64,000 bases of DNA. Source: Escherichia coli. Its GTDB lineage: Bacteria; Pseudomonadota; Gammaproteobacteria; Enterobacterales; Enterobacteriaceae. Made by a program: the position numbers and the translations under genes. The stretch lies in assembly GCF_009931435.1 (NCBI RefSeq), contig NZ_CP043414.1. One strand, given 5' to 3'. Shown here piece by piece: positions 30,038-58,462 of the stretch (position 1 is the first letter of the stretch; each line of letters starts with the position of its first letter). The notes under the pieces are model-generated. The model had not been told where the DNA came from and made no database searches. It saw nothing but the letters and a program-made list of their open reading frames with translations.

Positions 30038-31471
30038 ATGAAAGTAACGCTGCCAGAGTTTGAACGTGCAGGAGTGATGGTGGTTGGTGATGTGATGCTG
30101 GATCGTTACTGGTACGGTCCCACCAGCCGTATCTCGCCGGAAGCGCCGGTGCCCGTGGTTAAAGTGAATACCATCGAAGAACGTCCGGGCGGCGCGGCTA
30201 ACGTGGCGATGAATATCGCTTCTCTCGGTGCTAATGCACGCCTGGTCGGGTTGACGGGCATTGACGATGCGGCGCGCGCGCTGAGTAAATCTCTGGCCGA
30301 CGTCAACGTCAAATGCGACTTCGTTTCTGTACCGACGCATCCGACCATCACCAAATTACGGGTACTTTCCCGCAACCAACAGCTGATCCGTCTGGATTTT
30401 GAAGAAGGTTTCGAAGGGGTTGATCCGCAGCCGCTGCACGAGCGGATTAATCAGGCGCTGAGTTCGATTGGCGCGCTGGTGCTCTCTGACTACGCGAAAG
30501 GTGCGCTGGCAAGCGTGCAGCAGATGATCCAACTGGCGCGTAAAGCGGGCGTTCCGGTGCTGATTGATCCAAAAGGCACCGATTTTGAGCGCTACCGCGG
30601 CGCTACGCTGTTAACGCCGAATCTCTCGGAATTTGAAGCTGTTGTTGGTAAATGTAAAACAGAAGAAGAGATTGTTGAACGCGGCATGAAACTGATTGCC
30701 GACTACGAACTCTCGGCTCTGTTGGTGACCCGTTCCGAACAAGGGATGACCCTGCTGCAACCGGGTAAAGCGCCGCTGCATATGCCAACCCAGGCGCAGG
30801 AAGTGTATGACGTTACCGGTGCGGGCGACACGGTGATTGGCGTCCTGGCGGCAACGCTGGCAGCGGGTAATTCGCTGGAAGAAGCCTGCTTCTTTGCCAA
30901 TGCGGCAGCTGGTGTGGTGGTTGGCAAACTGGGAACATCCACGGTTTCACCGATCGAGCTGGAAAACGCAGTACGTGGACGTGCAGATACCGGCTTTGGT
31001 GTGATGACCGAAGAGGAGCTGAAGCTGGCGGTAGCGGCGGCGCGTAAACGCGGTGAAAAAGTGGTGATGACCAACGGCGTCTTCGACATTCTGCACGCCG
31101 GGCATGTCTCCTATCTGGCAAACGCCCGTAAACTGGGTGACCGCCTGATTGTCGCTGTGAACAGCGATGCCTCCACCAAACGGCTGAAAGGGGATTCCCG
31201 CCCCGTTAACCCTCTCGAACAGCGTATGATTGTGCTGGGGGCACTGGAAGCGGTCGACTGGGTGGTGTCGTTTGAAGAAGATACGCCGCAGCGCTTGATC
31301 GCCGGGATCTTGCCAGACCTGCTGGTGAAAGGCGGCGACTATAAACCAGAAGAGATTGCCGGGAGTAAAGAAGTCTGGGCCAACGGTGGCGAAGTGTTGG
31401 TGCTCAACTTTGAAGACGGTTGCTCAACGACCAACATCATCAAGAAGATCCAACAGGATAAAAAAGGCTAA
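30038..31471 (+). CDS. hldE: Bifunctional heptose 7-phosphate kinase / heptose 1-phosphate adenylyltransferase
   Basis: ORF track 477 aa [27 protein letters not shown]. Confidence 0.95.
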
Positions 31472-31564
31472 CCGGAAAGCGGTTCACAGATCTCGCTTCG
31501 AACCAGGCAGGCCTATTGACGCTGTTGTTTTTTCAACCTAAAGTAAAGGAACAAGGGTAAGGGA

Positions 31565-31700
31565 GGATTTCTCCCCCCTCTGAATTGGTTGTTAGTAAGT
31601 CGGGAAACTTAACAGTAACAACACAATCAGTATGATGACGAACTTCATCATAACCCTTTCCTTATACAAGGCCCCTTCCTCGGGAGGGGCTTTCCCGTTT
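31565..31700 (+). ncRNA. sib: Sib-type antisense sRNA overlapping ibs (antitoxin); ends approximate
   Basis: Inferred from ibs position; GC hairpin ccccttcc tc gggagggg plus ctttcccgttt at 31669..31700 as plus-strand terminator. Confidence 0.45.
31592..31651 (-). CDS. ibs: Ibs-family type I toxin, 19-aa hydrophobic peptide MMKFVIILIVLLLLSFPTY
   Basis: Read from minus strand: ATG ATG AAG TTC ... TAC TAA with aaggaaaggg SD; close resemblance to K-12 Ibs peptides (from memory). Confidence 0.7.
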   Translation of the reverse strand: MMKFVIILIVLLLLSFPTY

Positions 31701-31889
31701 CAGCCCCTTGCTGACTACCCGATTGTTGATGAGCGCCAGACCCCGCGCAATGCTTTCTCTTATGCAGTTTTCTCTTCCCCGAGTTGGCTCGCAAAACGCT
31801 GTAACAACCTGATCATTTGTACTTTTTAGCGGAACGCAGATATAAAAAATCCCCGGCTTTTTGGGCCAGGGATGTTCATAGTTGAAAAT

Positions 31890-33551
31890 TTATTCTATGT
31901 TTTCTGCGACGGGAGTTGTTGAGGTTAAGGGTGAAGTCAATGCCGCTAGCGAGCCGCCTGAAACACCGATTTCATTGAGTAAGGAGTCAATCAGCGGTGC
32001 CTGTGTGCGATAAGAAAGCGCGGCTGATAACGCTTGTTCCGCCAGATTTCCTCCACCAACGCTACCTGATATTGCATCCCCTGCGGTACCACCACGGTTC
32101 AGACCATCGACCTGAATAATCTTAATACCGTCGATAGACTTCATTGGTTCCACAGATTTCTCAATTACCGCAGGGAGCGCCTGCAACAATGCCAGTTTGA
32201 ATTTAAGGCTGGTTTGCTCGTCAGAAAGTACGTTGATAGCATCGTTCAGCGCACGTTGCGCTTCTGCTTCCGCCAGGCCTTTTTTACGCGTAGCTTCGGC
32301 TAACTCAACGATCGCCGCCGCCTGCATCTCTGCGGCTTCTTTTTCTGCTTTCGCCCGCACGGTCAGTTCAACCGCTTTGGTTTCTGCATCCTGCGCGGCA
32401 GCGATTAGGGCAACTTGTTTAGCACGATCGGCTTCTGCGGTCTGGCGAGTGGTTTCTACGTTTTGCTGGGCGCTTACCGCTTCTGCAAGTGCAAGGTTGG
32501 CACGCGCTTCCGCTTGTGACTGCTGTTCCGATTTGGCGGCAATAGCGATCGATTTCGTCTGGTTGGCGATTTCGGTGACCTGCTGCTGTTCGATCTCTTT
32601 AATGCGAACTTCACGTTCAGCTTCAACTTTTCTGGAACGGACGGCCTGTTCGCGGTCGATTTCCGTTTCCTGAATCTGTCGTTCAGCCAGAATTCGCGTC
32701 TGCTCTGCTTCCCGACGACGCTCGGCCTCAAAAGCCGCAATTTTCGCATTCTGCTCAGCGGTACGGGTTTTAACCTGCTGCTCCTGCTCAAGCGTCATAA
32801 ACGCTTCTTGCTGTTCAATCTCCAGCTTCCGCGATAGCGCATCACGGTTTTTCTCACGCACCGCAACTTCTACATCTTGTTCAACTTCGTTACGTTCGCG
32901 GCGACGGCGCTCCGTCTCCTGCGTCAGCTTGGTTAAACCTTCGGCGTCAAAGGCGTTGTTAGGATTGAAATGTTCTTTCGACGTCTGGTTAAAGTTGGTA
33001 AGTGAAACGCTTTCCAGTTCCAGGCCGTTTTTCGACAGATCTTCAGCAACGGTATTTTGTACGCCCTGCACGAAGTTCTCGCGGGTATCCTGTAACTCAT
33101 GCATGGTCATTTGTGCAGCTGTTGCACGGAGGGCATCGACAAATTTATCTTCAACCAACATACGTAAGTCTTCAGGCGACAGGGTGCGTTGCCCCAGCGT
33201 CTGGGCGGCGGTGGCAATACCTTCCACTGACGGTTTTACCCGCACAAAGAAAGCGACAACGACATCGACGCGCATACGATCTTTCGTAATCAGGCTATCA
33301 ATGGTTGAGCGGCTGACTTCCAGCTTCAGAGTATTCATATTGATGGGGATTATTTCATGAAAGATCGGCATCACGATTGCGCCACCGCTCATTACCACTT
33401 TTTGCCCACCTAAACCAGTACGAACAAAAGCTTGCTCTGCCGAAGCGCGACGATAGAGCCTGGCGAAAATAATTCCAATAATAAACAGAATGCATACGGC
33501 AATAATTGCGGTAAACATCCAGGAGGGCACAGAATTAACAATATCATCCAT
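31890..33551 (-). CDS. yqiK: SPFH/band-7 (flotillin-like) membrane protein
   Basis: ORF track 553 aa; N-terminal TM plus long coiled-coil. Confidence 0.85.
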   Translation of the reverse strand: MDDIVNSVPSWMFTAIIAVCILFIIGIIFARLYRRASAEQAFVRTGLGGQKVVMSGGAIVMPIFHEIIPINMNTLKLEVSRSTIDSLITKDRMRVDVVVAFFVRVKPSVEGIATAAQTLGQRTLSPEDLRMLVEDKFVDALRATAAQMTMHELQDTRENFVQGVQNTVAEDLSKNGLELESVSLTNFNQTSKEHFNPNNAFDAEGLTKLTQETERRRRERNEVEQDVEVAVREKNRDALSRKLEIEQQEAFMTLEQEQQVKTRTAEQNAKIAAFEAERRREAEQTRILAERQIQETEIDREQAVRSRKVEAEREVRIKEIEQQQVTEIANQTKSIAIAAKSEQQSQAEARANLALAEAVSAQQNVETTRQTAEADRAKQVALIAAAQDAETKAVELTVRAKAEKEAAEMQAAAIVELAEATRKKGLAEAEAQRALNDAINVLSDEQTSLKFKLALLQALPAVIEKSVEPMKSIDGIKIIQVDGLNRGGTAGDAISGSVGGGNLAEQALSAALSYRTQAPLIDSLLNEIGVSGGSLAALTSPLTSTTPVAENIE

Positions 33552-34703: not shown

Positions 34704-34710
34704 TGGTGCT

Positions 34711-35010
34711 TTATTCTGCTTTATCAACCGGCGGGATAGCCGGAGGAGATTGAAGTTCTGCTACCGGATTATTGCGCGCTTCCAGTTCGCTGATGCGTTG
34801 TTCCAGTAACGCCAGTTTTTCACGAGTCCGTAACAGGACTTGCGTCTGAACGTCGAATTCTTCGCGGCTTACCAGATCGAGACGCGTCAACTGCGCTTGT
34901 AGGGTTTGGCGGATTTTTTTCTCCACATCTTCCCCGAACTCCCTGATTCCTTTAGGCATTGATTCGTGAACCTGGCGAGCGATTTGCTCAATTTTTTTCG
35001 GGTCAATCAT
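34711..35010 (-). CDS. ubiK: Ubiquinone biosynthesis accessory factor UbiK
   Basis: ORF track 34711..35070; likely start [21 protein letters not shown] at 35010. Confidence 0.85.
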
Positions 35011-44451: not shown

Positions 44452-46347
<1,896 letters not shown>

Positions 46348-46373: not shown

Positions 46374-46408
46374 ATAGCCCGGTATACAAGTGTATACCGG
46401 GCTTTTTT
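46374..46408. terminator. Bidirectional terminator between parE and the islet receptor gene
   Basis: gcccggtataca agtg tataccgggc followed by tttttt; receptor stop codon abuts at 46411. Confidence 0.7.
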
Positions 46409-46410
46409 GA

Positions 46411-48552
46411 TCAAAATTCCATTTTCACCGTGAATTGCACTTCACGAGGATCGCCAATCTGGTTGCCCAGATTATTTGTGGCGATGGAAGAGGTGTAATA
46501 CGTTTTATCAAACAGGTTTTTGACGTTTAATTGCAGTGTGACCGGATACTGCAATTTCATTTTGTATGCGGCGAAGGCATCGGCAACAAAATAGCCTGGC
46601 AGATAATAGTCAGCCCCATTGGTTGCCGAACGACGGCTTACACCATGTCCACCACCGCCAAACGTCAGTGTGTTATTGCCTGGCATGTTATGAATATCAT
46701 AGGTCAGGAATAGCGAACCGGTATGACGAGGAACATTCGGCAATGGTTTCCCTGCATAATCAGGATCCTCCAGAACCTTAGCATCGGTATAGCCGTAGCT
46801 GGCAATGATATTAATGTTTTCAGTTAATGCTCCCGCAAGGTCGACTTCTACCCCTCTTGAACGAACACGGCCTGCCGTTTTGGCAATGGTTTCATCACCA
46901 ACACTTTCGGTATACAACACATTACGTTTATGGATATCAAACAGCGCAATATCTGCGGTGATACCATCGAATAGCTCGAATTTTGCCCCGACTTCGTAAG
47001 CATTAGATGATTCTGGTGGTAGATCGCCAATGTAGCTGGCAATTGACGATTGCGGCATAAATGTTTGCGAATAATTGGCAAATAAGGATACCGATGGCGT
47101 CAGTTTGTAGACCAATCCCAGTTTGGGAGTCCATTGTTCATCGCGGCTGTCAGTATTGACATTAAAAGGACGGCCTTTACCCGCATACTGCGTGTAATAC
47201 TGATAGCGGAGCCCGGCGACGGCAATCCAGTTATCGGTCAGATAGAGTGCATCCTGTGCATAAGCTGAGTAGCTCTCCTGTTTGATCGTCTGATCACTGT
47301 CCGACGCCGAGACCGTTGTGCATTTGCTGGTATTGCCATAAACAGGGTTGTAGATATTGAAATCTTTAGCTTTTTTACAGCGAATCATATCTGTGCGCAG
47401 AAGATCATAATATTCATATGACACCCCACCCAGAATCTCATTATAGAATCCAGCAACATCAACATTCCCTTGCAGATCCGCACGAGTAGCATGCATACGC
47501 TGGGTAGATCCTTGAGTTGCATCAACACGCCGTGTCAGCGTTCCTGTCGTTGCATCATACGCGGTAACACGCGCCTGATTATCGCTGTATTTATCCTGGC
47601 TGTAGCTGTAATCAAAGCGCGCTGTCCACTGGCTATTGAGATGATATTCTGCGTTGAGTTGCGCCAGATCGGACTGACCATCTGTAATATTAAACGGTTC
47701 GTCAAAACGTATTTTTCGATCAACGTTTACGGGCTGTTTCGTCGTAAGGTCGAAAATCGTTCCACGATCGAACGGAGTTTTATAGTCCCGATGGGAATAG
47801 AGCATGGTTACTGTTGCATTATCACCAAACCAGGTGAGTGACGGGGCAATAAATGTACTGCGCTCTTTACCGAAGTTTCGCCAGTAATCTTCATCCTGCA
47901 CTTCCCCGGTAAGGCGATACGCCAGCTGAGTGCCTTCAATGGGACCTGTGATATCCAATTGCCCAGTGCCTCCGCCAAAACTGGAGGAAGTGGCTGAGAC
48001 AGTACCATGGAATGTTTTTTCCGGGCGCTTTGTCACGACGTTAATCAGTCCGCCAGGATCGAGAATGCCATACAGCGTGGAGGCCGGACCTTTTAGCACT
48101 TCCACACGTTCTGTGGCGGCGTTGAAACTGCGAGGAAGTACAGTTCGCAGGCCGTTGGTCATGATGGAGCCATCCCGGTTAGCACCAAACCCACGACGTA
48201 CAAAAGCATCCTGAGTCCCGCCTAATGTATTGGTCTGTACCACGTTACTGACGTTATAAAGTGCCTCATCCAGCGTCGTCGCATTCTGATTTTCCAGAAC
48301 TTGATCGCTAACCGTATTGACCACCTGCGGGATATCCAGCATCGGCATATCGGTTAATGTCGCCGTGGAGGTGCTCAGAGGTTGATAACCATCGGTCGCC
48401 TCAGTTGCGGTATTTGCATCCGCTGTAACAGTGATTGTTTCGCCATCTTTGGTCGTTACAGTGTCGGTTGCATGAATCATCGGTGCTGCAAAGAGCAGTG
48501 AAAAGAGCGCTCGACCTTTGAGTCCTGAGAATGAAGGTGTGAACATAGCCAT
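46411..48552 (-). CDS. TonB-dependent outer-membrane receptor (siderophore-type)
   Basis: ORF track 713 aa; signal peptide, TonB box ETITVTA, plug domain, C-terminal aromatic residue (FTVKMEF). Confidence 0.85.
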   Translation of the reverse strand: MAMFTPSFSGLKGRALFSLLFAAPMIHATDTVTTKDGETITVTADANTATEATDGYQPLSTSTATLTDMPMLDIPQVVNTVSDQVLENQNATTLDEALYNVSNVVQTNTLGGTQDAFVRRGFGANRDGSIMTNGLRTVLPRSFNAATERVEVLKGPASTLYGILDPGGLINVVTKRPEKTFHGTVSATSSSFGGGTGQLDITGPIEGTQLAYRLTGEVQDEDYWRNFGKERSTFIAPSLTWFGDNATVTMLYSHRDYKTPFDRGTIFDLTTKQPVNVDRKIRFDEPFNITDGQSDLAQLNAEYHLNSQWTARFDYSYSQDKYSDNQARVTAYDATTGTLTRRVDATQGSTQRMHATRADLQGNVDVAGFYNEILGGVSYEYYDLLRTDMIRCKKAKDFNIYNPVYGNTSKCTTVSASDSDQTIKQESYSAYAQDALYLTDNWIAVAGLRYQYYTQYAGKGRPFNVNTDSRDEQWTPKLGLVYKLTPSVSLFANYSQTFMPQSSIASYIGDLPPESSNAYEVGAKFELFDGITADIALFDIHKRNVLYTESVGDETIAKTAGRVRSRGVEVDLAGALTENINIIASYGYTDAKVLEDPDYAGKPLPNVPRHTGSLFLTYDIHNMPGNNTLTFGGGGHGVSRRSATNGADYYLPGYFVADAFAAYKMKLQYPVTLQLNVKNLFDKTYYTSSIATNNLGNQIGDPREVQFTVKMEF

Positions 48553-48650
48553 TTAGTCTGTTATCCCAAAAACTCGCGGATTGTCGCGAGTGAAAATTGT
48601 TTCTTATTGCTCACTAAGCACTATCCGTTTGTTATTTCGCCATCGGATAT

Positions 48651-48669
48651 GTAATTGAGAATCATTCAA
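48651..48669. promoter_or_regulatory. Candidate Fur box in the receptor/ABC divergent control region
   Basis: gtaattgagaatcattcaa, about 12/19 match to Fur consensus, core GAGAATCATT. Confidence 0.35.
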
Positions 48670-48925
48670 TCACGCGGTAATGTAGTAGTAAATGAGAAAT
48701 AACAAAAAATTGCTACATGTGTTTTTATGAAAGGTTTATACAATTTAATTGTTTTTAATTTATTAATATTTAATGTTTTTATTTTTATGTGCAAAAATAT
48801 TTTACCTGTTATTTACCTTGTTTTTGTGTGGCTTTTAACTGCTTGACTACTACATTTTGTGGCATCAAACTCTCAAAGGAGAATGAGTTTTATTTTTGTT
48901 TGTCTTTGATTAAGTTGGCGTACAC

Positions 48926-49735
48926 GTGGCACATAACGCAAAAGGGCAGGGGCTGATCCTCGACAATGTTTCTGCCGGGTATCACAAGAAAATCATTGTT
49001 GATGGTGTTTCTTTCTCCGTTCCCACAGAAAAAATGACCGTTCTGGTTGGGGCAAACGGCTGTGGAAAGTCGACGCTGCTCAGCACCATTGCTCGTATCT
49101 TGCATCCCATGGGCGGTTCGATATTGCTTGATGGCAACGCGATTCACGAGCAACCAACGAAAGCGTTATCCCGTAGACTTGGGATCTTGCCGCAGTCGCC
49201 ATTATTGCCGGAGGGCTTAACCGTTTATGAACTGGTGTCGCGTGGGCGTTTTCCCTGGCAGAATTTCATTCGTCAATGGAGCGACGCCGATGAGCTGGCG
49301 GTAGAAGAGGCCCTGAAATTAACGGGTACGCAGGAGTTTGCACATTTACCTGTTGAAAAACTCTCTGGTGGGCAGCGCCAGCGTTGCTGGATTGCGATGG
49401 TGTTGGCGCAAAAGACGCCTTATATCCTGCTGGATGAACCCACAACCTGGCTTGATTTACGTTATCAGGTTGAAATTCTTGAGTTATTACATGATTTAAC
49501 GCGTCATCACGGGCGTACAGTCGTCGTGGTGTTGCATGATCTGAATTTTGCCGTCAATTATGGCGATACGTTGATATTTTTACGCCAGGGGAAAGTGGTG
49601 CGTGTGTTGAATGAGGGGGAGCATTGCACGCCTGAGCTGGTAAAAGCGGTCTTTGACGTTGATGTTCACGCATCAATAAATCCTCTGACGGGAAAGCCGT
49701 TCTTCATGCCGTTTCGTGGTGTAGAAAAAGTATGA
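48926..49735 (+). CDS. Iron-siderophore ABC transporter ATP-binding protein (FecE/FepC-like)
   Basis: ORF track 269 aa; Walker A GANGCGKST, signature LSGGQRQR, Walker B ILLDEP; GTG start with weak SD. Confidence 0.85.
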   Translation: MAHNAKGQGLILDNVSAGYHKKIIVDGVSFSVPTEKMTVLVGANGCGKSTLLSTIARILHPMGGSILLDGNAIHEQPTKALSRRLGILPQSPLLPEGLTVYELVSRGRFPWQNFIRQWSDADELAVEEALKLTGTQEFAHLPVEKLSGGQRQRCWIAMVLAQKTPYILLDEPTTWLDLRYQVEILELLHDLTRHHGRTVVVVLHDLNFAVNYGDTLIFLRQGKVVRVLNEGEHCTPELVKAVFDVDVHASINPLTGKPFFMPFRGVEKV

Positions 49736-50715
49736 TGCGCACAGGGCTGGTTACTGTAATTTTCCTCGCCTTACTGCTGGTGGGATGCGTGGTATATCCA
49801 GGGATTGGTGCCCGATTTATTGCACCACAAACGGTGTTGCAGGCATTTCTTCATTTTGATCTGCAAAACTTCGATCACAACGTAATTGTAAGACTCCGTT
49901 TGCCGCGTTTAGCGGCAGCATTGCTTACCGGTGCTTCTCTTGGCGTTGCTGGTGCTTTGTTGCAGGCTGTCATTCGTAACCCATTGGGGGAGCCACATAT
50001 TTTAGGCTTAAATGCCGGAGCCGCTCTTGCTGTCGTTGCCGCCAGTGCGCTTGGACTGGCCTTTCCGATTGGACGCCCACTGCTGGCATCTACGGGGGGC
50101 GCGTTATTGTTCCTGTTGATATTGCTGCTTTCCTCCGCAGGGCGTTCAGGGTTAACGCCAATGAAAGTTACTTTATGCGGCGTGGCGCTATCGGCGTTCG
50201 TGTCCTCAATAACGGCTGCAATCCTGATTCTTGACGAACAAACACTGCTGGCGATGCGGACATGGCTAGCAGGTGATTTAGCGGGGCAGGATTGGGCGAC
50301 GCTGGGTACGTCCGCCTGGTTTTCTCTGGGGGGATTTGTGTTAGCCCTTTACCTTGCACCCTCCCTTAACATGTTGGCACTGGGCGATCGCATGGCGCAG
50401 GGGCTGGGCGTCTCTGTATTCCGCACGCGAACATTCACCCTGCTTGCGATCGCGTTGCTCTGTGGCGCAGCCGTATCGATTGCTGGCCCCATTGGTTTTG
50501 TCGGCCTGCTAGTACCGCAGATTGTCCGGCGTCTGGTATCAGCGGATCTGCGCGTTCTGCTCCCTCTTTCAGCTTGTGTCGGCGCACTTTTGTTATTACT
50601 GGCAGATATTATTGCCCGTACGCTTTTCACGCCCCATGAGTTAGCGACCGGTGTCATGACGGCGTTAGTTGGTGCGCCTGTTTTTGTCATTATGGCGACG
50701 AGGATGTTCAAATGA
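49732..50715 (+). CDS. ABC transporter permease (FecCD family)
   Basis: ORF track 327 aa polytopic; overlaps neighbours by 4 nt. Confidence 0.85.
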   Translation: MMRTGLVTVIFLALLLVGCVVYPGIGARFIAPQTVLQAFLHFDLQNFDHNVIVRLRLPRLAAALLTGASLGVAGALLQAVIRNPLGEPHILGLNAGAALAVVAASALGLAFPIGRPLLASTGGALLFLLILLLSSAGRSGLTPMKVTLCGVALSAFVSSITAAILILDEQTLLAMRTWLAGDLAGQDWATLGTSAWFSLGGFVLALYLAPSLNMLALGDRMAQGLGVSVFRTRTFTLLAIALLCGAAVSIAGPIGFVGLLVPQIVRRLVSADLRVLLPLSACVGALLLLLADIIARTLFTPHELATGVMTALVGAPVFVIMATRMFK

Positions 50716-51761
50716 GTCGGATAATGAACGTCGGGCTACGCCCACTACGTGTTGGTAAGTTTTCGACACTGGTACGCCCTAAAAATCTGCTGTTGCTTGG
50801 TGGGCTGTTCCTGCTTGCGGTTGGAATACTGATATTCGGTCTGATGCAGGGTTCTTTCTCTGTTCCGGCATCGGAAGTAGGACGAGCGTTGTTTGCTCCA
50901 GAAAACGTAAGCACAGACGCACGTTATATTGTGCAGGATATTCGCTTGCCGAGAGTCATCATGGCATTGCTATGCGGGGCCATGTTAGGTATGGCAGGGG
51001 CCGCAATGCAATCCATTGCACGTAACGGCCTTGCCGATCCTGGTTTAATCGGCGTCAAAGAAGGATGTAGCGTGGCTGTGCTGTGGCTGATTTTCCAGTT
51101 TCCAATGCTGGGAATGTTCTGGCGTCCAGTGGCTGGTCTTGCTGGCGGCCTGTTGGTGGCTTTAATCGTGATTTTTTGTGCGCGCGATATTTCCCGCCCG
51201 CGATTTGTTCTGATTGGTATTGGTGTTTCCTGGTTTTTCGCCGCCGGTATCGGTGTATTTATGACCACTGCAGATGTTCGAGATGTACAAACTGCATTGA
51301 TGTGGTTATCGGGAAGCCTGCATGCAGCTAACTGGATGTTAGTCGGTATTTCAGCCTGTTGGATGTTGCCAGCCGCTCTTTTATTGCTGTTCACCGCCAG
51401 GACGGCGGATATCGCTCTGCTTGGTCATCAGGTGGCAACCGGGTTAGGCGTGAATAGTTCTCGCCTGGCGTTGTTACGTGTCGCCGCACCCATAATCCTG
51501 ACAGCCGTCTGCGTTTCGTGTGTTGGTAACATAGGTTTTGTCGGATTGATAGCACCCCATATATCACGTTTTATTCTACGTGGCGGGCAGACGACATTAC
51601 TGCTGGGGAGCGCGGTATCGGGGGCGTTGTTAGTTATTCTGGCGGATAGCATTGGTCGTTTGGCTTTTTTGCCTTTGCAACTGCCTGCCGGAATCATTAT
51701 CTCACTGATTGGTGGACCATTTTTTTTGCTACTGCTCTGGCAGCGCAGGAACAGTTTTTAA
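50712..51761 (+). CDS. ABC transporter permease (FecCD family), second subunit
   Basis: ORF track 349 aa polytopic. Confidence 0.85.
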   Translation: MSRIMNVGLRPLRVGKFSTLVRPKNLLLLGGLFLLAVGILIFGLMQGSFSVPASEVGRALFAPENVSTDARYIVQDIRLPRVIMALLCGAMLGMAGAAMQSIARNGLADPGLIGVKEGCSVAVLWLIFQFPMLGMFWRPVAGLAGGLLVALIVIFCARDISRPRFVLIGIGVSWFFAAGIGVFMTTADVRDVQTALMWLSGSLHAANWMLVGISACWMLPAALLLLFTARTADIALLGHQVATGLGVNSSRLALLRVAAPIILTAVCVSCVGNIGFVGLIAPHISRFILRGGQTTLLLGSAVSGALLVILADSIGRLAFLPLQLPAGIIISLIGGPFFLLLLWQRRNSF

Positions 51762-51771
51762 CGGGAGTTAT

Positions 51772-52719
51772 ATGCGTTTATTTTTTTCTCTGCTGATACT
51801 GTTGTCATTTTTTTCCCGTGCAACAGAACCTGTTCAGGTATTTACTGATGATTTAGGGCGCAAAGTCACTGTTCCTGCTCATCCAAAGAGAATTGTCTCT
51901 TTACACGATCTTGATATCACTATTCCTCTGATTGAGCTCGGTGTACCTCCTATCGCCAGCCACGGGCGAACTCGGCCTGACGGTAGCCATTTCATTCGAT
52001 CTGGCGCGTTATTGACAGGTGTCGACTTTGATAATTCATCGATCGCCTTTATTGGTACCGCTGATATTGATATTGAAGCGATTGTGGCGGCAAAGCCTGA
52101 CCTGATCATCACAGAACCGACCCGTAATACGCCCATTGAACAACTTGAAAAAATTGCGCCCACGGTGAGCATTGATCATCTCAAAGGGGGCGCGCCAGAA
52201 ATCTATCGCAAGCTGGCAGAACTTACAGGAACGCAGTCGCAGCTGGCGATACTTGAACGCCGCTATCAGGCACAAATCAATGCGCTGAAGGCGACGCTGG
52301 ACAGCCAAAAAATAACGGTATCGGTGATTCAGGCAAACCAGGGAAAAATTAATGTGATGCATAGCTATCATTCGCTGGGGCGGGTATTACGCGATGCTGG
52401 TTTTCGTTTTCCGCCGCTGATTGAGAGCATTCCTGAAGGTGGGCGAATGGATGTGAGCGCGGAGCGTTTACCTGAACTGGATGCCGATTTTGTTTTTGCA
52501 ACCTGGCGCGGTGACACCGGGGGTAAACCTCAGGATGAGCTGGCAGCAATGGAAAAAGTCATGCCGGGATGGTGTCAGTTTCTGACTGCCTGTCGTTCCG
52601 GGCGTTATGTGCTGATTTCTCGTGAAGAGGCAATTTCTAACTCCTTTGCATCTCTGGGGCTGATGGCTGCGCAGATACAATCACAAATTGCAGGGCGACC
52701 TCTACCGGAGGCTAAATGA
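51772..52719 (+). CDS. Periplasmic siderophore-binding protein (class III, FecB/FhuD-like)
   Basis: ORF track 51709..52719; start MRLFFSLLILLSFFSRA at 51772 with gggag SD; signal peptide. Confidence 0.8.
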   Translation: MRLFFSLLILLSFFSRATEPVQVFTDDLGRKVTVPAHPKRIVSLHDLDITIPLIELGVPPIASHGRTRPDGSHFIRSGALLTGVDFDNSSIAFIGTADIDIEAIVAAKPDLIITEPTRNTPIEQLEKIAPTVSIDHLKGGAPEIYRKLAELTGTQSQLAILERRYQAQINALKATLDSQKITVSVIQANQGKINVMHSYHSLGRVLRDAGFRFPPLIESIPEGGRMDVSAERLPELDADFVFATWRGDTGGKPQDELAAMEKVMPGWCQFLTACRSGRYVLISREEAISNSFASLGLMAAQIQSQIAGRPLPEAK

Positions 52720-53604
52720 TCCAGAAAGATAAAGCGCGGGTTGATATTTTTGGTGAGCGTTTTCGCACTCGCGCGAGTCAGTTAACGCCTGGGTTAAGAG
52801 CTGTCGCCAGCTACATTAATGAGCATCGTGAAGTGGTACTCGAGCAAACGGCGATGGAAATTGCGGCCACGTTGAACACTTCCGATGCCACAGTTATCAG
52901 GGCTATACAGGCCCTGGGGTTTGCCGGGCTGCGTGATCTGAAACGCACTCTGGAACAGTGGCTTGGTCCAGCCCTTAGTTCCAGCGAAAAGATGTCTACG
53001 ACGGTGAGTAACTTGACGAGCGATGTTAACACCGCAATCGACTTTGTTCTTGAAGGGCATTTGTATACCTGTAATGTCCTGTCAGAGCCTGAAAACCGCC
53101 ACGCGCTTGCGCAAGCTGTAGCGTTGTTGGTGCAGGCACGGCAAGTCGCAATTTTTGGCATTGGCGCTTCGGGTATTCTGGCGGACTATACCGCACGACT
53201 ATTCAACCGCATAGGTTTGCCTGCCACGGCACTAAACCGTACGGGTATTGGCCTTGCCGAGCAACTGATCGCGCTTCAACGTGGCGATGTTCTGATCATG
53301 ATGGCGCAAAAATCTGCGCACCGGGAAGGGGTGACAACGCTTCGTGAGGCGAGGCGGCTGGGGAATCCCTGTTATTTTGCTGACAAACGCGCTGGATTCA
53401 CGTTTTAGCAAAGACGCCAGTATCGTGATTCATGTTCCGCGCGGGGATGAAAAAGGGAAAACGCCGCTACATGGTACGGTATTGTTGTGTCTGGAAATGA
53501 TTGTCTGGTCGGTAGCTTCCGCAGTGCCGCAGCGTGCGGTTAAAACCATTAAGCGAATTAACGATTTCCATCGAGGACTGAAAACGGGAAGAAAGAATGG
53601 CTAA
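52716..53604 (+). pseudogene. RpiR/MurR-family regulator (HTH_6 plus SIS domain) interrupted by a +1 frameshift near 53357..53362
   Basis: ORF 52716..53408 ends in NPCYFADKRAGFTF; ORF 53344..53604 in the next frame continues the SIS domain as GIPVILLTNALDSRF...; the two join across a gggg/aa run. Confidence 0.7.
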
Positions 53605-53616
53605 TCTGGGCTGAGA

Positions 53617-53645
53617 CCGGTAGCAGCACCGGCCTCTTTTCAGGA
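53617..53645 (+). terminator. Hairpin after the regulator gene (ccggtagcagcaccgg plus T-rich tail)
   Basis: Inverted repeat seen in sequence between regulator and ygiN. Confidence 0.45.
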
Positions 53646-53648
53646 ATG

Positions 53649-53963
53649 TTAAATCCCCGGTTGCAGGATACGAATATTCATCTCCAGCACGTCGCCTTTT
53701 ACGGCTTCGCTGTACGCCTTCATGTGCGGGGTTTGCAGGTGCGCTTCAAGGTGCGCGATGCTTTCCCACTGCTCAATCATCACGATAGAATCCGGTGCCA
53801 TAGACTGGAAACTCACGCCAGCAGCGCAATCCACCATTGGCGCATAGCCGTGGCAACCTTCTTCTTTCAATACGGTTGGAACGATTTTAGCAAACTGATC
53901 CAACACTGCCTGACGGTGATGTTGACCTGGACGAGTACGGATTTCTGCGATTACTGTAATCAT
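53649..53963 (-). CDS. ygiN: Quinol monooxygenase
   Basis: ORF track 104 aa MITVIAEIRTRPGQHHRQAVLDQF. Confidence 0.9.
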   Translation of the reverse strand: MITVIAEIRTRPGQHHRQAVLDQFAKIVPTVLKEEGCHGYAPMVDCAAGVSFQSMAPDSIVMIEQWESIAHLEAHLQTPHMKAYSEAVKGDVLEMNIRILQPGI

Positions 53964-53993: not shown

Positions 53994-54575
53994 TTAACCA
54001 AAAATTTCCACAAGATGCTTGCGATATTCTTCAGTATAGCGGGGAACATCAGGCATTTTTATCACGTCATTAGCGATAAATGTCGGTAGCGGTTCCATAC
54101 CGAGGAATTGGTTTGCTTTATGGAACGGCAGGTACACACCGTCAACACCAACGCCGTGGAAGAACTGATCTTTTTCGGTGAAGGCTTCCATTGGTGCGTT
54201 CCAGGTCAGGGAAAGCATATATTTTTTGCCCTGTATCAGGCCGCCGGAACCGTATTTTTTTGATGGATCTTTGCGGGTACGACCATCGCTGGCATACAGA
54301 GTCCCGTGACCTTCGGTGAATACATCATCAATATATTTTTTCACTGTCCACGGCGCGCCCATCCACCAGCCTGGCATCTGCCAGATCACCACATCAGCCC
54401 AGAGAAAGTTTTGTACTTCGGCTTTGACATCGTAGTCGCTCTCGGCGCGAACAATACGGACATCATGCCCGAGGTCGCGCAGCGTGCCATCCGCGACTTC
54501 GGTCAGGGTGTCGTTCAGTTGACCATTGGAGTGGGCGAATTTTTTCGCGCCGTTGATAATCAGGATGTTGCTCAT
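53994..54575 (-). CDS. mdaB: NADPH:quinone oxidoreductase
   Basis: ORF track 193 aa MSNILIINGAKKFAHSNGQLN. Confidence 0.9.
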   Translation of the reverse strand: MSNILIINGAKKFAHSNGQLNDTLTEVADGTLRDLGHDVRIVRAESDYDVKAEVQNFLWADVVIWQMPGWWMGAPWTVKKYIDDVFTEGHGTLYASDGRTRKDPSKKYGSGGLIQGKKYMLSLTWNAPMEAFTEKDQFFHGVGVDGVYLPFHKANQFLGMEPLPTFIANDVIKMPDVPRYTEEYRKHLVEIFG

Positions 54576-54891
54576 TTTTTAACCTCAAGGTGAGACGTTT
54601 GCCGACTATAGTACGTCACAGAGCGGTACGGTGAAATTAGCAAAATGTGCAAAGTCTTTTGCGAATTTAGCAAAAGTCTGATCTTGCTCCGATTCACCGA
54701 TGCAGGATAAATATTTTCTGAAAATGACAATACTGATAGCCATTCCTCATAATTCCTACTCGCACCGGATTAATTTACAGGTTTGGTTCGGTTTTTTGGG
54801 GATTAAAAATATGGCGTTGGATAAGTAAAAATGAAAATATCAACGCGTCACGTTGATAATTATAAATGGATTTTTATGAGCGTGCTAACAT

Positions 54892-55224
54892 ATGTTAAAG
54901 CATAAAATTCAAACAATATTTGAAGCTCTGTTATATATAGTGCTTACTTATTGGTTAATAGATGCTTTTTTTGCATTCAATAAGTATGACTGGATGCTTG
55001 AGTCGGGAGACAATATTTGCAGTATACCTTCCGTTTCAGGCGAAGATCGTATATTGCAAACAATGATTGCAGCATTTTTTCTTCTGACGCCACTTATTAT
55101 TCTTATCTTAAGAAAACTCTTTGTGCGAGAAATCTTTGAGTTTTGGTTATATGTAATCTCGCTCGTTATTTGTTTGGTTTGTGGTTGGTGGCTTTTTTGG
55201 GGACGGTTTATATTTTGCTATTAA
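54892..55224 (+). CDS. ygiZ: Inner-membrane protein
   Basis: ORF track 110 aa, 3 predicted TM segments. Confidence 0.7.
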   Translation: MLKHKIQTIFEALLYIVLTYWLIDAFFAFNKYDWMLESGDNICSIPSVSGEDRILQTMIAAFFLLTPLIILILRKLFVREIFEFWLYVISLVICLVCGWWLFWGRFIFCY

Positions 55225-55269
55225 TAAAATCTATGAGAGTCGTTTTAACGGCTCTCATAGACAGAGAAG

Positions 55270-58354: not shown

Positions 58355-58462
58355 TGAAGAATCTTTACCGGAGTGTGAGCCAAATCACTCGCGATAAGTT
58401 TGAGCGAACAATGCCACAGGCGTATTGTTGTTGGGCTTATAATTTCTCCGGTAAGGAATACC

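Follow-up and report, generated by a model that had tools for sequence, protein, structure and literature searches.

The fit iron-uptake locus between parE and ygiN in an Escherichia coli chromosome and a predicted operator of its regulator FitR

Gene content and identity of the parE-ygiN islet

The window (the whole 64-kb stretch of E. coli DNA that was analysed) carries an islet of about 7.3 kb between the convergent genes parE and ygiN. The gene fitA is on the minus strand, followed by a control region of 373 bp and by fitB, fitC, fitD, fitE and fitR on the plus strand:

46376..46403, both directions: terminator-like hairpin with a 12-bp stem, AGCCCGGTATAC-AAGT-GTATACCGGGCT followed by TTTTTT
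46411..48552, minus: fitA, TonB-dependent outer-membrane siderophore receptor, 713 aa (TIGR01783, 375.1 bits, cutoff 223.5)
48926..49735, plus: fitB, ABC transporter ATPase, FecE/FepC-like, 269 aa, GTG start
49732..50715, plus: fitC, FecCD-family permease (FecC/FecD/FhuB-like), 327 aa
50712..51761, plus: fitD, FecCD-family permease, 349 aa from the ATG at 50712 (RefSeq start 50724, 345 aa)
51772..52719, plus: fitE, periplasmic siderophore-binding protein, weakly FepB/FecB-like, 315 aa, signal peptide
52716..53604, plus: fitR, RpiR/MurR-family autorepressor (HTH_6 and SIS), disrupted; the present frame ends at 53408 (230 aa)
53364, plus: extra A, frameshift at codon 217 in the SIS domain, GGGGAATCC versus GGGGATCC in every other genome
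53617..53632, plus: weak terminator-like hairpin 3' of fitR, just ahead of the ygiN stop codon (53649)

Protein families were assigned with NCBIfam models and their curated cutoffs. These calls and the open reading frames agree with the order that the sequence-only reading had given (receptor on the minus strand, control region, ATPase, two permeases, binding protein, RpiR-type regulator). The family of the regulator was correctly named, but the gene is not intact: its open reading frame is cut to 230 aa by the extra A. Similarly, the 4-nt overlaps described for the plus-strand genes exist at three of the four junctions (B/C, C/D and E/R) but not at D/E. The mechanically called fitE reading frame begins at a TTG at 51709. 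The first hairpin sits between the stop codons of parE and fitA and is partly homologous to the parE-ygiN hairpin of K-12.

The GC content of the islet is slightly low (49.2% versus 51.8%; GC3 is 0.44-0.53 versus 0.53-0.63 in the flanks). As had been noted before, mobility genes (integrase, IS) are absent from the islet, and a search for direct or inverted repeats of at least 7 nt found none that join its two junctions; by the usual marks (integrase or IS, a tRNA target and direct repeats on either side), it does not qualify as a classical genomic island.

A resemblance of this layout to the fit locus had been suggested, and the relation is closer than likeness: with a probability of about 0.9, the block is the published E. 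coli fit iron-uptake cluster (fitA, fitBCDE, fitR), together with its general transport and regulatory scheme, because all 18 of 18 published fit primers (Ouyang & Isaacson 2008, PMC2593036) can be placed in the expected genes and orientations with 0-1 mismatches. Published primers for fitA qPCR map to 47732-47808, and those for the cloning of fitR to 52716 and 53587-53601. The six genes, their order and their orientation are the same as in the fit locus of E. coli i484 and CFT073 (c3771-c3775; Ouyang & Isaacson 2006, 2008), which also has a Fur-regulated divergent promoter region; the window copy differs by an insertion of 1 bp, private to it, which shortens FitR to 230 of 295 aa. The fit locus is already known from work published in 2006-2009, has been linked to ExPEC, AIEC and EHEC strains, and serves as a strain marker.

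FitA belongs to the TonB-dependent siderophore receptors: it passes the TIGR01783 cutoff of this plug-and-barrel family, and its N-terminus consists of a signal peptide followed by a TonB-box-like ETITVTA, with no N-terminal signalling extension of the FecA type. The closest solved relatives are FoxA, FetA and FhuA (~170 bits). With receptor equivalog models (FhuA, FoxA, FhuE, FecA, Fiu, CirA, FepA) the best scores are 160-237 bits, far below the cutoffs of 666-1300, and therefore no substrate can be assigned to FitA by homology. The pocket of FitE, the structure of which is attributed to Shi and colleagues in 2009, is reportedly lined with arginines, pointing to an anionic siderophore; residues 19-315 of the window protein (mature FitE) match the chain of PDB 3BE5/3BE6 with E = 3e-195. 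For each of the transport components, the top-scoring families are ferric-siderophore ones. Judged from family membership and published work, FitA would carry a ferric chelate through the outer membrane on TonB energy; FitE would take the chelate in the periplasm, and FitC/FitD with the ATPase FitB would import it.

This arrangement is like that of the Fhu (ferric hydroxamate) and Fec (ferric dicitrate) systems of K-12, which also combine a TonB-dependent receptor, a class III binding protein, FecCD-type permeases, an ATPase and Fur control. Differences are nevertheless clear: FitA reaches only 230-237 bits with FhuA-type equivalog models (cutoffs 800-880), and fit has a dedicated RpiR/SIS repressor instead of surface signalling of the FecIR type.

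The divergent control region and the regulator FitR

The fit locus is controlled by Fur, as experiments on i484 and CFT073 show (PMC2593036, PMC7157518): chelation of iron induces it and a fur mutant shows 23-fold derepression (PMC2593036), and in CFT073 it counts among the direct members of the Fur regulon and is bound by Fur (PMC7157518). FitR represses fit and binds an intergenic fragment (PMC2593036); the primers of the published EMSA fragment map to 48574-48932. The region contains the following elements:

48553..48925, no strand: divergent fitA/fitB control region, 373 bp, 30% GC, with blocks conserved in at least 20 taxa
48651..48669, no strand: Fur-box-like element GTAATTGAGAATCATTCAA that matches the consensus at 12/19 positions and overlaps the predicted fitA -10 (TTGAAT, minus strand)
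48680..48692, minus: predicted FitR box A, TTTACTACTACAT; spans the predicted fitA -35 and the beginning of the spacer; inverted repeat
48843..48856, plus: predicted FitR box B, CTTGACTACTACAT; spans the predicted fitB -35 (TTGACT) and the beginning of the spacer
48879..48897, no strand: second Fur-box-like element GAGAATGAGTTTTATTTTT, 12/19, downstream of the predicted fitB promoter

The Fur-box-like element at 48651..48669 is nearly invariant across enterobacterial genera and is the presumptive Fur site. All examined cassettes, those of four Rhizobiaceae replicons among them, have the exact 12-mer TTGACTACTACA as an inverted pair: from Escherichia to Rhizobium the pair is invariant, while the neighbouring sequence is not. 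The pair falls inside the published EMSA fragment, and the 12-mer is found nowhere else in the 64-kb window. We slightly favour the inverted boxes as the FitR operator, a prediction from sequence; part of their conservation could reflect promoter function, as the box overlaps a good -35 hexamer. In the proposed scheme, two repressors, Fur-Fe2+ and the cassette's own RpiR-type FitR, would control the back-to-back promoter pair, with FitR predicted to bind two inverted boxes that overlap both -35 regions.

The distance between the boxes is conserved within clades and is 162 bp in the window. Helical phasing of the boxes, with DNA looping, was considered since the spacings of two enterobacterial classes (162-164 and 183-186 bp) are 21 bp apart; the idea was dropped, as the distances are 175 bp in K. 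pneumoniae and 141, 141, 215 and 229 bp in rhizobia, with 175 and 229 out of phase.

An intact fitR would run to 53604 and code for 295 aa. The frame-corrected protein has the domain pair of the MurR/RpiR family (HTH_6 at residues 15-81, SIS at 138-247), whereas in the window's own FitR the SIS domain breaks off at residue 217. The window thus lacks an intact FitR autorepressor; this is a defect of the allele and no argument against its membership in fit. Solved structures offer only distant RpiR relatives (~58 bits) and no clue to the FitR ligand.

The insertion is private, shared by 0 of 1770 genomes (best matches 60/61), and is also seen on comparison with RMDEC465. We regard the frameshift as probably genuine. 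An error in sequencing or assembly, which would leave the strain with a normal, fully regulated fit, is the less likely explanation, yet one to be taken seriously: a single inserted base is absent from all 1770 other genomes, one of them 99.6% identical over the region, and the extra A falls within GATC, a Dam methylation site. Such sites are a known error hot spot in nanopore base-calling and assemblies. However, the insertion lies outside any long homopolymer and no other tested gene of the window is broken: the K-12 genes that it wholly contains are intact in 29 of 29 cases, indicating that the window is not ridden with indels, and fitA to fitE have full length. If the base call is real, FitR control would be lost and expression of fit would probably be a few-fold higher, still repressed by iron via Fur; the truncated FitR, which keeps its HTH, might still bind DNA.

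Distribution and history of the junction

The islet is present in 1870 of 5426 complete E. coli genomes (about a third), and the window copy is 97-99.6% identical to theirs. K-12 has no islet: parE and ygiN are adjacent there, as the sequence-only reading had stated, with a spacer of 47 bp. In EC38, the sole genome where the position was checked, a different cargo, a sugar islet of 8.3 kb, lies between parE and ygiN; this cargo is present in about 405 E. coli genomes. The parE-ygiN junction has at least three alternative states.

In the Fit tree, grouping follows the chromosomal site and not the species phylogeny. This grouping, together with the second cargo at the junction, makes spread via the flanks plausible, and it is rather likely that the fit islet moves among E. 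coli lineages by homologous recombination through conserved flanks. The earlier proposal of an acquisition by homologous recombination of flanking core DNA stays plausible in the sense of this spread. The description as inserted is not established: the junction sequence fits insertion or deletion alike, and the parE-fit-ygiN synteny, which is also found in Enterobacter, Lelliottia, Silvania and Huaxiibacter, is ancient, since it is shared by genomes with saturated synonymous sites (pS of the fit genes between E. coli and these genera is 0.64-0.82; flanks 0.51-0.69).

Could the fit-positive state be ancestral, the K-12-type adjacency a clean deletion and the window a case of retention? The common gene order in the four genera argues for it, as do fit pS values between these genera and E. 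coli that are no lower than those of the flanks. Moreover, the dS of fit is 0.15-0.37, similar to the flanks, in L003 and L004, two divergent genomes of Escherichia, and all sampled empty sites have an identical span of 747 bp, as expected of a single event. Nevertheless, we consider pure retention doubtful. The Fit tree makes the Enterobacter group the sister of Escherichia, with Citrobacter and Kosakonia excluded; this is incongruent with the species tree, and at least one ancient transfer is thus needed. A scan with a single genome per species yielded only two loci from Escherichia and none from the records of Salmonella or other Escherichia species, the K-12 spacer has no recognisable fit remnant, and the junction also takes a different cargo, as a recombination hot spot would. 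A recent import from Enterobacter together with the flanks was rejected, as the synonymous sites of fit are saturated, and parE, ygiN and mdaB of the window are no closer to Enterobacter than those of K-12. The empty site of K-12 was also inspected for a deletion scar or microhomology, with just a shared hairpin and a CAGGA motif, which are uninformative.

Beyond these genera, the six-gene cassette with the inverted TTGACTACTACA pair is conserved as far as Rhizobiaceae. The rhizobial cassettes (for example of Rhizobium tumorigenes, NZ_CP117260.1) have the same six-gene layout as fit, including the MurR/RpiR gene, and their proteins are 60-63% (FitA), 62-67% (FitE) and 42-47% (FitR) identical to those of the window. 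Like the window, they have the inverted pair in the divergent intergenic region; unlike the window, they lack the enterobacterial Fur-box blocks and have a box spacing of 141-229 bp rather than 162 bp. TonB-dependent receptors of Roseomonas, Diaphorobacter and Cupriavidus (44-51% identity) are not fit, as cassette and boxes are absent. The variants of Erwinia and Pantoea have two extra PstS-like binding proteins, and the Erwinia variant has an extra PepSY_TM protein, a member of a family that includes ferric-siderophore reductases such as FoxB. A search for substrate clues beside fit in Citrobacter, Kosakonia, Kluyvera and Yokenella found unrelated, variable neighbours and no biosynthetic cluster.

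Substrate and wider reading

The substrate of fit was still termed unknown in 2018 (PMC5907654) and 2022 (PMC9409007), as the sequence-only reading had noted, and no identification was found in the literature searched. Homology together with regulation by iron and Fur supports a transporter role, and fit is very probably an iron-siderophore uptake module. An anionic xenosiderophore from other organisms as the substrate is a guess of low confidence.

Import of a cargo other than iron, for instance another metallophore or a sugar-derived compound, is conceivable given the phosphosugar-sensing RpiR/SIS type of regulator: such a regulator is unusual for a siderophore system and yet no cassette between Rhizobiaceae and E. 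coli has lost it, PMC5907654 and PMC9409007 still give the substrate as unknown, and the Erwinia and Pantoea variants carry their two added PstS-like proteins. We consider this very improbable, as the best matches of all transport components are to ferric-siderophore families, the PepSY_TM family of the Erwinia variant is known for ferric-siderophore reductases, and fit responds to iron chelation, to the loss of Fur (23-fold) and is Fur-bound in CFT073.

Within the preferred reading of fit as a siderophore uptake module, a tentative and rather unlikely extension is that fit is an ancient self-contained module of Alpha- and Gammaproteobacteria, in which FitR reads the invariant TTGACTACTACA box at both promoters and responds to a signal of sugar or phosphosugar type tied to the substrate. 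If true, this would make fit a new class of ligand-gated uptake system for siderophores or metallophores and the strain a natural FitR-null variant.

The locus itself adds nothing new; its by-products are of modest value. The operator of FitR, left open by the 2008 paper, gains a specific and testable candidate. The parE-ygiN site, with three states that lack mobility genes, is useful for studying the exchange of islets by recombination through their flanks, and the range of the conserved cassette, which reaches from rhizobia to E. coli, restricts the substrate search to something shared by plant, soil and gut habitats.

Identity and layout of the parE-ygiN islet

The open reading frames (ORFs) between parE and ygiN are as follows:

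44455..46347, + strand: parE
46411..48552, - strand: fitA, 713 aa
48553..48925: fitA/fitB gap, 373 bp, 30% GC
48926..49735, + strand: fitB
49732..50715, + strand: fitC
50712..51761, + strand: fitD
51709/51772..52719, + strand: fitE, alternative starts
52716..53408, + strand: fitR reading frame as found in the window
53649..53963, - strand: ygiN, with mdaB beyond it

Judged by its sequence, the islet is the fit system already described in print: the 18 primers of Ouyang & Isaacson 2008, Table 2 (PMC2593036), which cover fitA to fitE, fitR, the promoter fragment and two fitR cloning pairs, all find a target in the window with 0-1 mismatches, each in the gene and orientation expected. The sequence-only reading had seen a likeness to the fit locus of pathogenic E. 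coli, and the primer mapping establishes identity. Mature FitE matches PDB 3BE5/3BE6 with E = 3e-195. The published roles are outer-membrane receptor (FitA), ATPase (FitB), permeases (FitC, FitD), periplasmic binding protein (FitE) and regulator (FitR); in strain i484, dipyridyl induces fit and purified FitR shifts a fitA-fitB intergenic fragment (PMC2593036). The fit genes of strain CFT073 (c3771-c3775) are included in the direct Fur regulon (PMC7157518).

ORFs and NCBIfam families agree with the six-gene layout first proposed, a receptor divergent from transport genes and a regulator: FitA scores 375 bits (cutoff 223.5) as a TonB-dependent siderophore receptor, FitB is a FecE/FepC-like ATPase, FitC and FitD are FecC/FecD/FhuB-like permeases, FitE is a FepB/FecB-like binding protein (a weak call) and FitR is a MurR/RpiR regulator. 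The 4-nt overlaps claimed between the plus-strand genes are present at three of the four junctions by ORF coordinates and absent from one. As the earlier reading had stated, parE and ygiN are neighbours in K-12, separated by 47 bp, and its description of an islet devoid of integrase, IS or junction repeat holds: the islet contains no integrase or IS genes and no repeat of at least 7 nt links both junctions.

The fit substrate was called unknown in 2018 (PMC5907654) and in 2022 (PMC9409007), and we found no later identification in the literature searched. Homology does not name it, as FitA stays far below every NCBIfam equivalog cutoff; the proteins of solved structure closest to FitA, namely FoxA, FetA and FhuA, score only about 170 bits, and FitE, its own structure aside, matches its nearest solved relatives YfiY, FhuD, FepB and SirA weakly throughout. 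No biosynthetic genes lie beside the cassette in any genus examined, consistent with piracy of a chelator from other organisms. The hosts are plant-associated enterics, rhizobia and gut Enterobacteriaceae, and the FitE pocket is reportedly lined with arginine; from these two points, our guess would be an anionic chelator common to plant, rhizobial and gut habitats.

Distribution and origin of the cassette

The whole islet is present in 1870 of 5426 complete E. coli genomes at 97-99.6% identity, and the fit-negative genomes sampled share a 747-bp empty junction. Strain EC38 has a third junction state, in which parE and ygiN flank an 8.3-kb islet other than fit (L051 3696-12027) that encodes a DUF2608 protein, a porin of the KdgM family, a phytase-like esterase, a carbohydrate kinase, a SIS-domain protein, an ADP-ribosylglycohydrolase, a GntR regulator and an MFS transporter; this sequence occurs in 405 of the 5426 genomes, with the parE-ygiN position confirmed in one. 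In E. coli CEC13002 (NZ_AP026116.1), the IS3-family element IS1203 interrupts the receptor gene, showing independent inactivation of fit in other lineages. What look like plasmid-borne copies in E. coli and K. pneumoniae probably come from chromosomes that were wrongly labelled, since the PLSDB records with fit (NZ_CP134663.1, 4.9 Mb; CP125156.1, 5.4 Mb; NZ_CP079635.1, 1.0 Mb) are chromosome-sized though filed as plasmids.

In a scan with one genome per species, fitA orthologues of 71-90% identity were found in Enterobacter, Lelliottia, Silvania and Huaxiibacter, where parE and ygiN/mdaB flank the cassette as in E. coli, and in Citrobacter, Kosakonia, Kluyvera, Yokenella, Erwinia, Pantoea and Affinibrenneria, where it lies at other sites. 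Some Enterobacter loci and a MAG (L006, L009, L033, L024) carry an extra 1.4-6.8 kb between fitA and parE, so the parE 3' end is a variable site in Enterobacter too. Erwinia, Pantoea and Affinibrenneria cassettes (L030 2600-5666 of Erwinia sp. JUb26; L032, L040) carry, between fitE and fitR, three additional genes in the same orientation, for a PepSY_TM membrane protein and two PstS-like (PBP_like_2) binding proteins. Cassettes on four Rhizobiaceae replicons keep the six-gene order of E. coli fit, with FitA 60-63%, FitE 62-67% and FitR 42-47% identical.

The islet had been regarded as inserted, probably by homologous recombination through its flanks. We retain recombination through the flanks as probable; the junction sequence fits insertion and deletion alike, as the K-12 spacer shares a parE-proximal hairpin with the left junction and, with the right one, a few bases (CAGGA-TTA), the expected remnant of insertion or of clean deletion. 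That the K-12 state is a deletion has a modest probability in our estimate. Signs of recent import are absent: when E. coli is compared with the Enterobacter group, synonymous sites of fit are saturated (pS 0.64-0.82; flanking genes 0.51-0.69), fit dS in two divergent Escherichia genomes (0.15-0.37) is similar to that of the flanks, and the flanks of the window are no closer to Enterobacter than those of K-12. Simple vertical descent is spoken against by the concatenated Fit tree, in which Escherichia and the parE-site genera are sister groups while Citrobacter and Kosakonia branch outside them, in conflict with the species tree. Divergence from K-12 is 5-6% in cpdA-parE, about 4% in ygiN-mdaB and 1.4-2.8% further out, suggesting old, linked haplotypes; GC3 is mildly low in fit (0.44-0.53) versus the flanks (0.53-0.63). 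Our reading is that fit is an ancient polymorphism at a cargo-tolerant junction, exchanged by recombination through the flanks.

Elsewhere, the window lacks about 6.6 kb of K-12 at 34705-34780 (holding the ygiL-yqiGHI fimbrial operon, in K-12 together with IS2), leaving a glgS-ubiK gap of only 75 bp, and, at 58356-58362, the mqsR-mqsA toxin-antitoxin module (~0.93 kb, ygiV-ygiS). At 31000-33000, around yqiK and on toward hldE, divergence from K-12 reaches its maximum of 7.5% per kb, higher than beside the islet. The region around ygiZ (54500-55250) is AT-rich (GC 0.33-0.37) and YgiZ shares only 90% identity with its K-12 counterpart. The mdaB dS of 0.19 to the otherwise nearly identical strain RMDEC465 suggests mosaic recombination just past ygiN.

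Control region and candidate FitR boxes

Alignment of the intergenic region from 23 cassettes revealed four conserved blocks amid otherwise unalignable AT-rich DNA:

48649-48669: block 1, TGTAATTGAGAATCATTCAA; last 19 nt (48651-48669) 12/19 to Fur-box consensus
48679-48693: block 2, ATGTAGTAGTAAATG; contains box A (48680-48692, - strand)
48843-48856: block 3, CTTGACTACTACAT; box B (+ strand)
48878-48897: block 4, AGAGAATGAGTTTTATTTTT; last 19 nt (48879-48897) 12/19 to Fur-box consensus

Blocks 2 and 3 form an inverted pair (inverted repeat I20), each reading T-T-(G/T)-A-C-T-ACTACAT in the direction of its own gene and made up of a -35-like hexamer and the first seven bases of the spacer. At 17 bp downstream there is a -10-like hexamer: TTGAAT for fitA, which the Fur-like box overlaps, and CAAACT for fitB. 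The exact 12-mer TTGACTACTACA occurs as an inverted pair in all cassettes examined, including the four Rhizobiaceae replicons, and the 10-mer core of the box has no second site elsewhere in the 64-kb window. The pair is best explained as a candidate FitR operator, because the spacer is invariant across two proteobacterial classes, travels with the cassette repressor and lies within the published EMSA fragment.

Helical-turn quantisation of the box spacing (162-164 versus 183-186 bp, 21 bp apart) was rejected, since neither the 175 bp of K. pneumoniae nor the 229 bp of R. lusitanum conforms to it. A third partial core, GCTACAT at 48711-48717, inverted relative to ATGTAG at 48680 and 26 bp inside box A, is conserved throughout the parE-site class as well as Citrobacter and Kosakonia, does not extend to Kluyvera or Erwinia, and may be an auxiliary half-site.

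The fitR frameshift

The RefSeq regulator of the closest genome has 295 aa. In the window, an extra A at 53364 (GGGGAATCC versus GGGGATCC) shifts the frame at codon 217, within the SIS domain (residues 138-247), giving a product of 230 aa. As sequenced, fitR is broken, a point missed by the sequence-only reading, unless the extra A is a base-calling artefact. It is in none of the 1770 genomes matching the 61-mer (best matches 60/61). Its position in a GATC Dam motif makes such an artefact a real, if less likely, possibility, against which stands that the window is not generally error-prone: all 29 K-12 genes wholly within it are intact and none of fitA to fitE is shortened.

The fit locus itself was already known; what the analysis adds is modest, namely the private fitR frameshift, the three-state junction, the ancient cross-genus synteny and the candidate FitR box. 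If the insertion is real, fit would be derepressed few-fold with Fur control kept, as predicted from the published fitR knockout.
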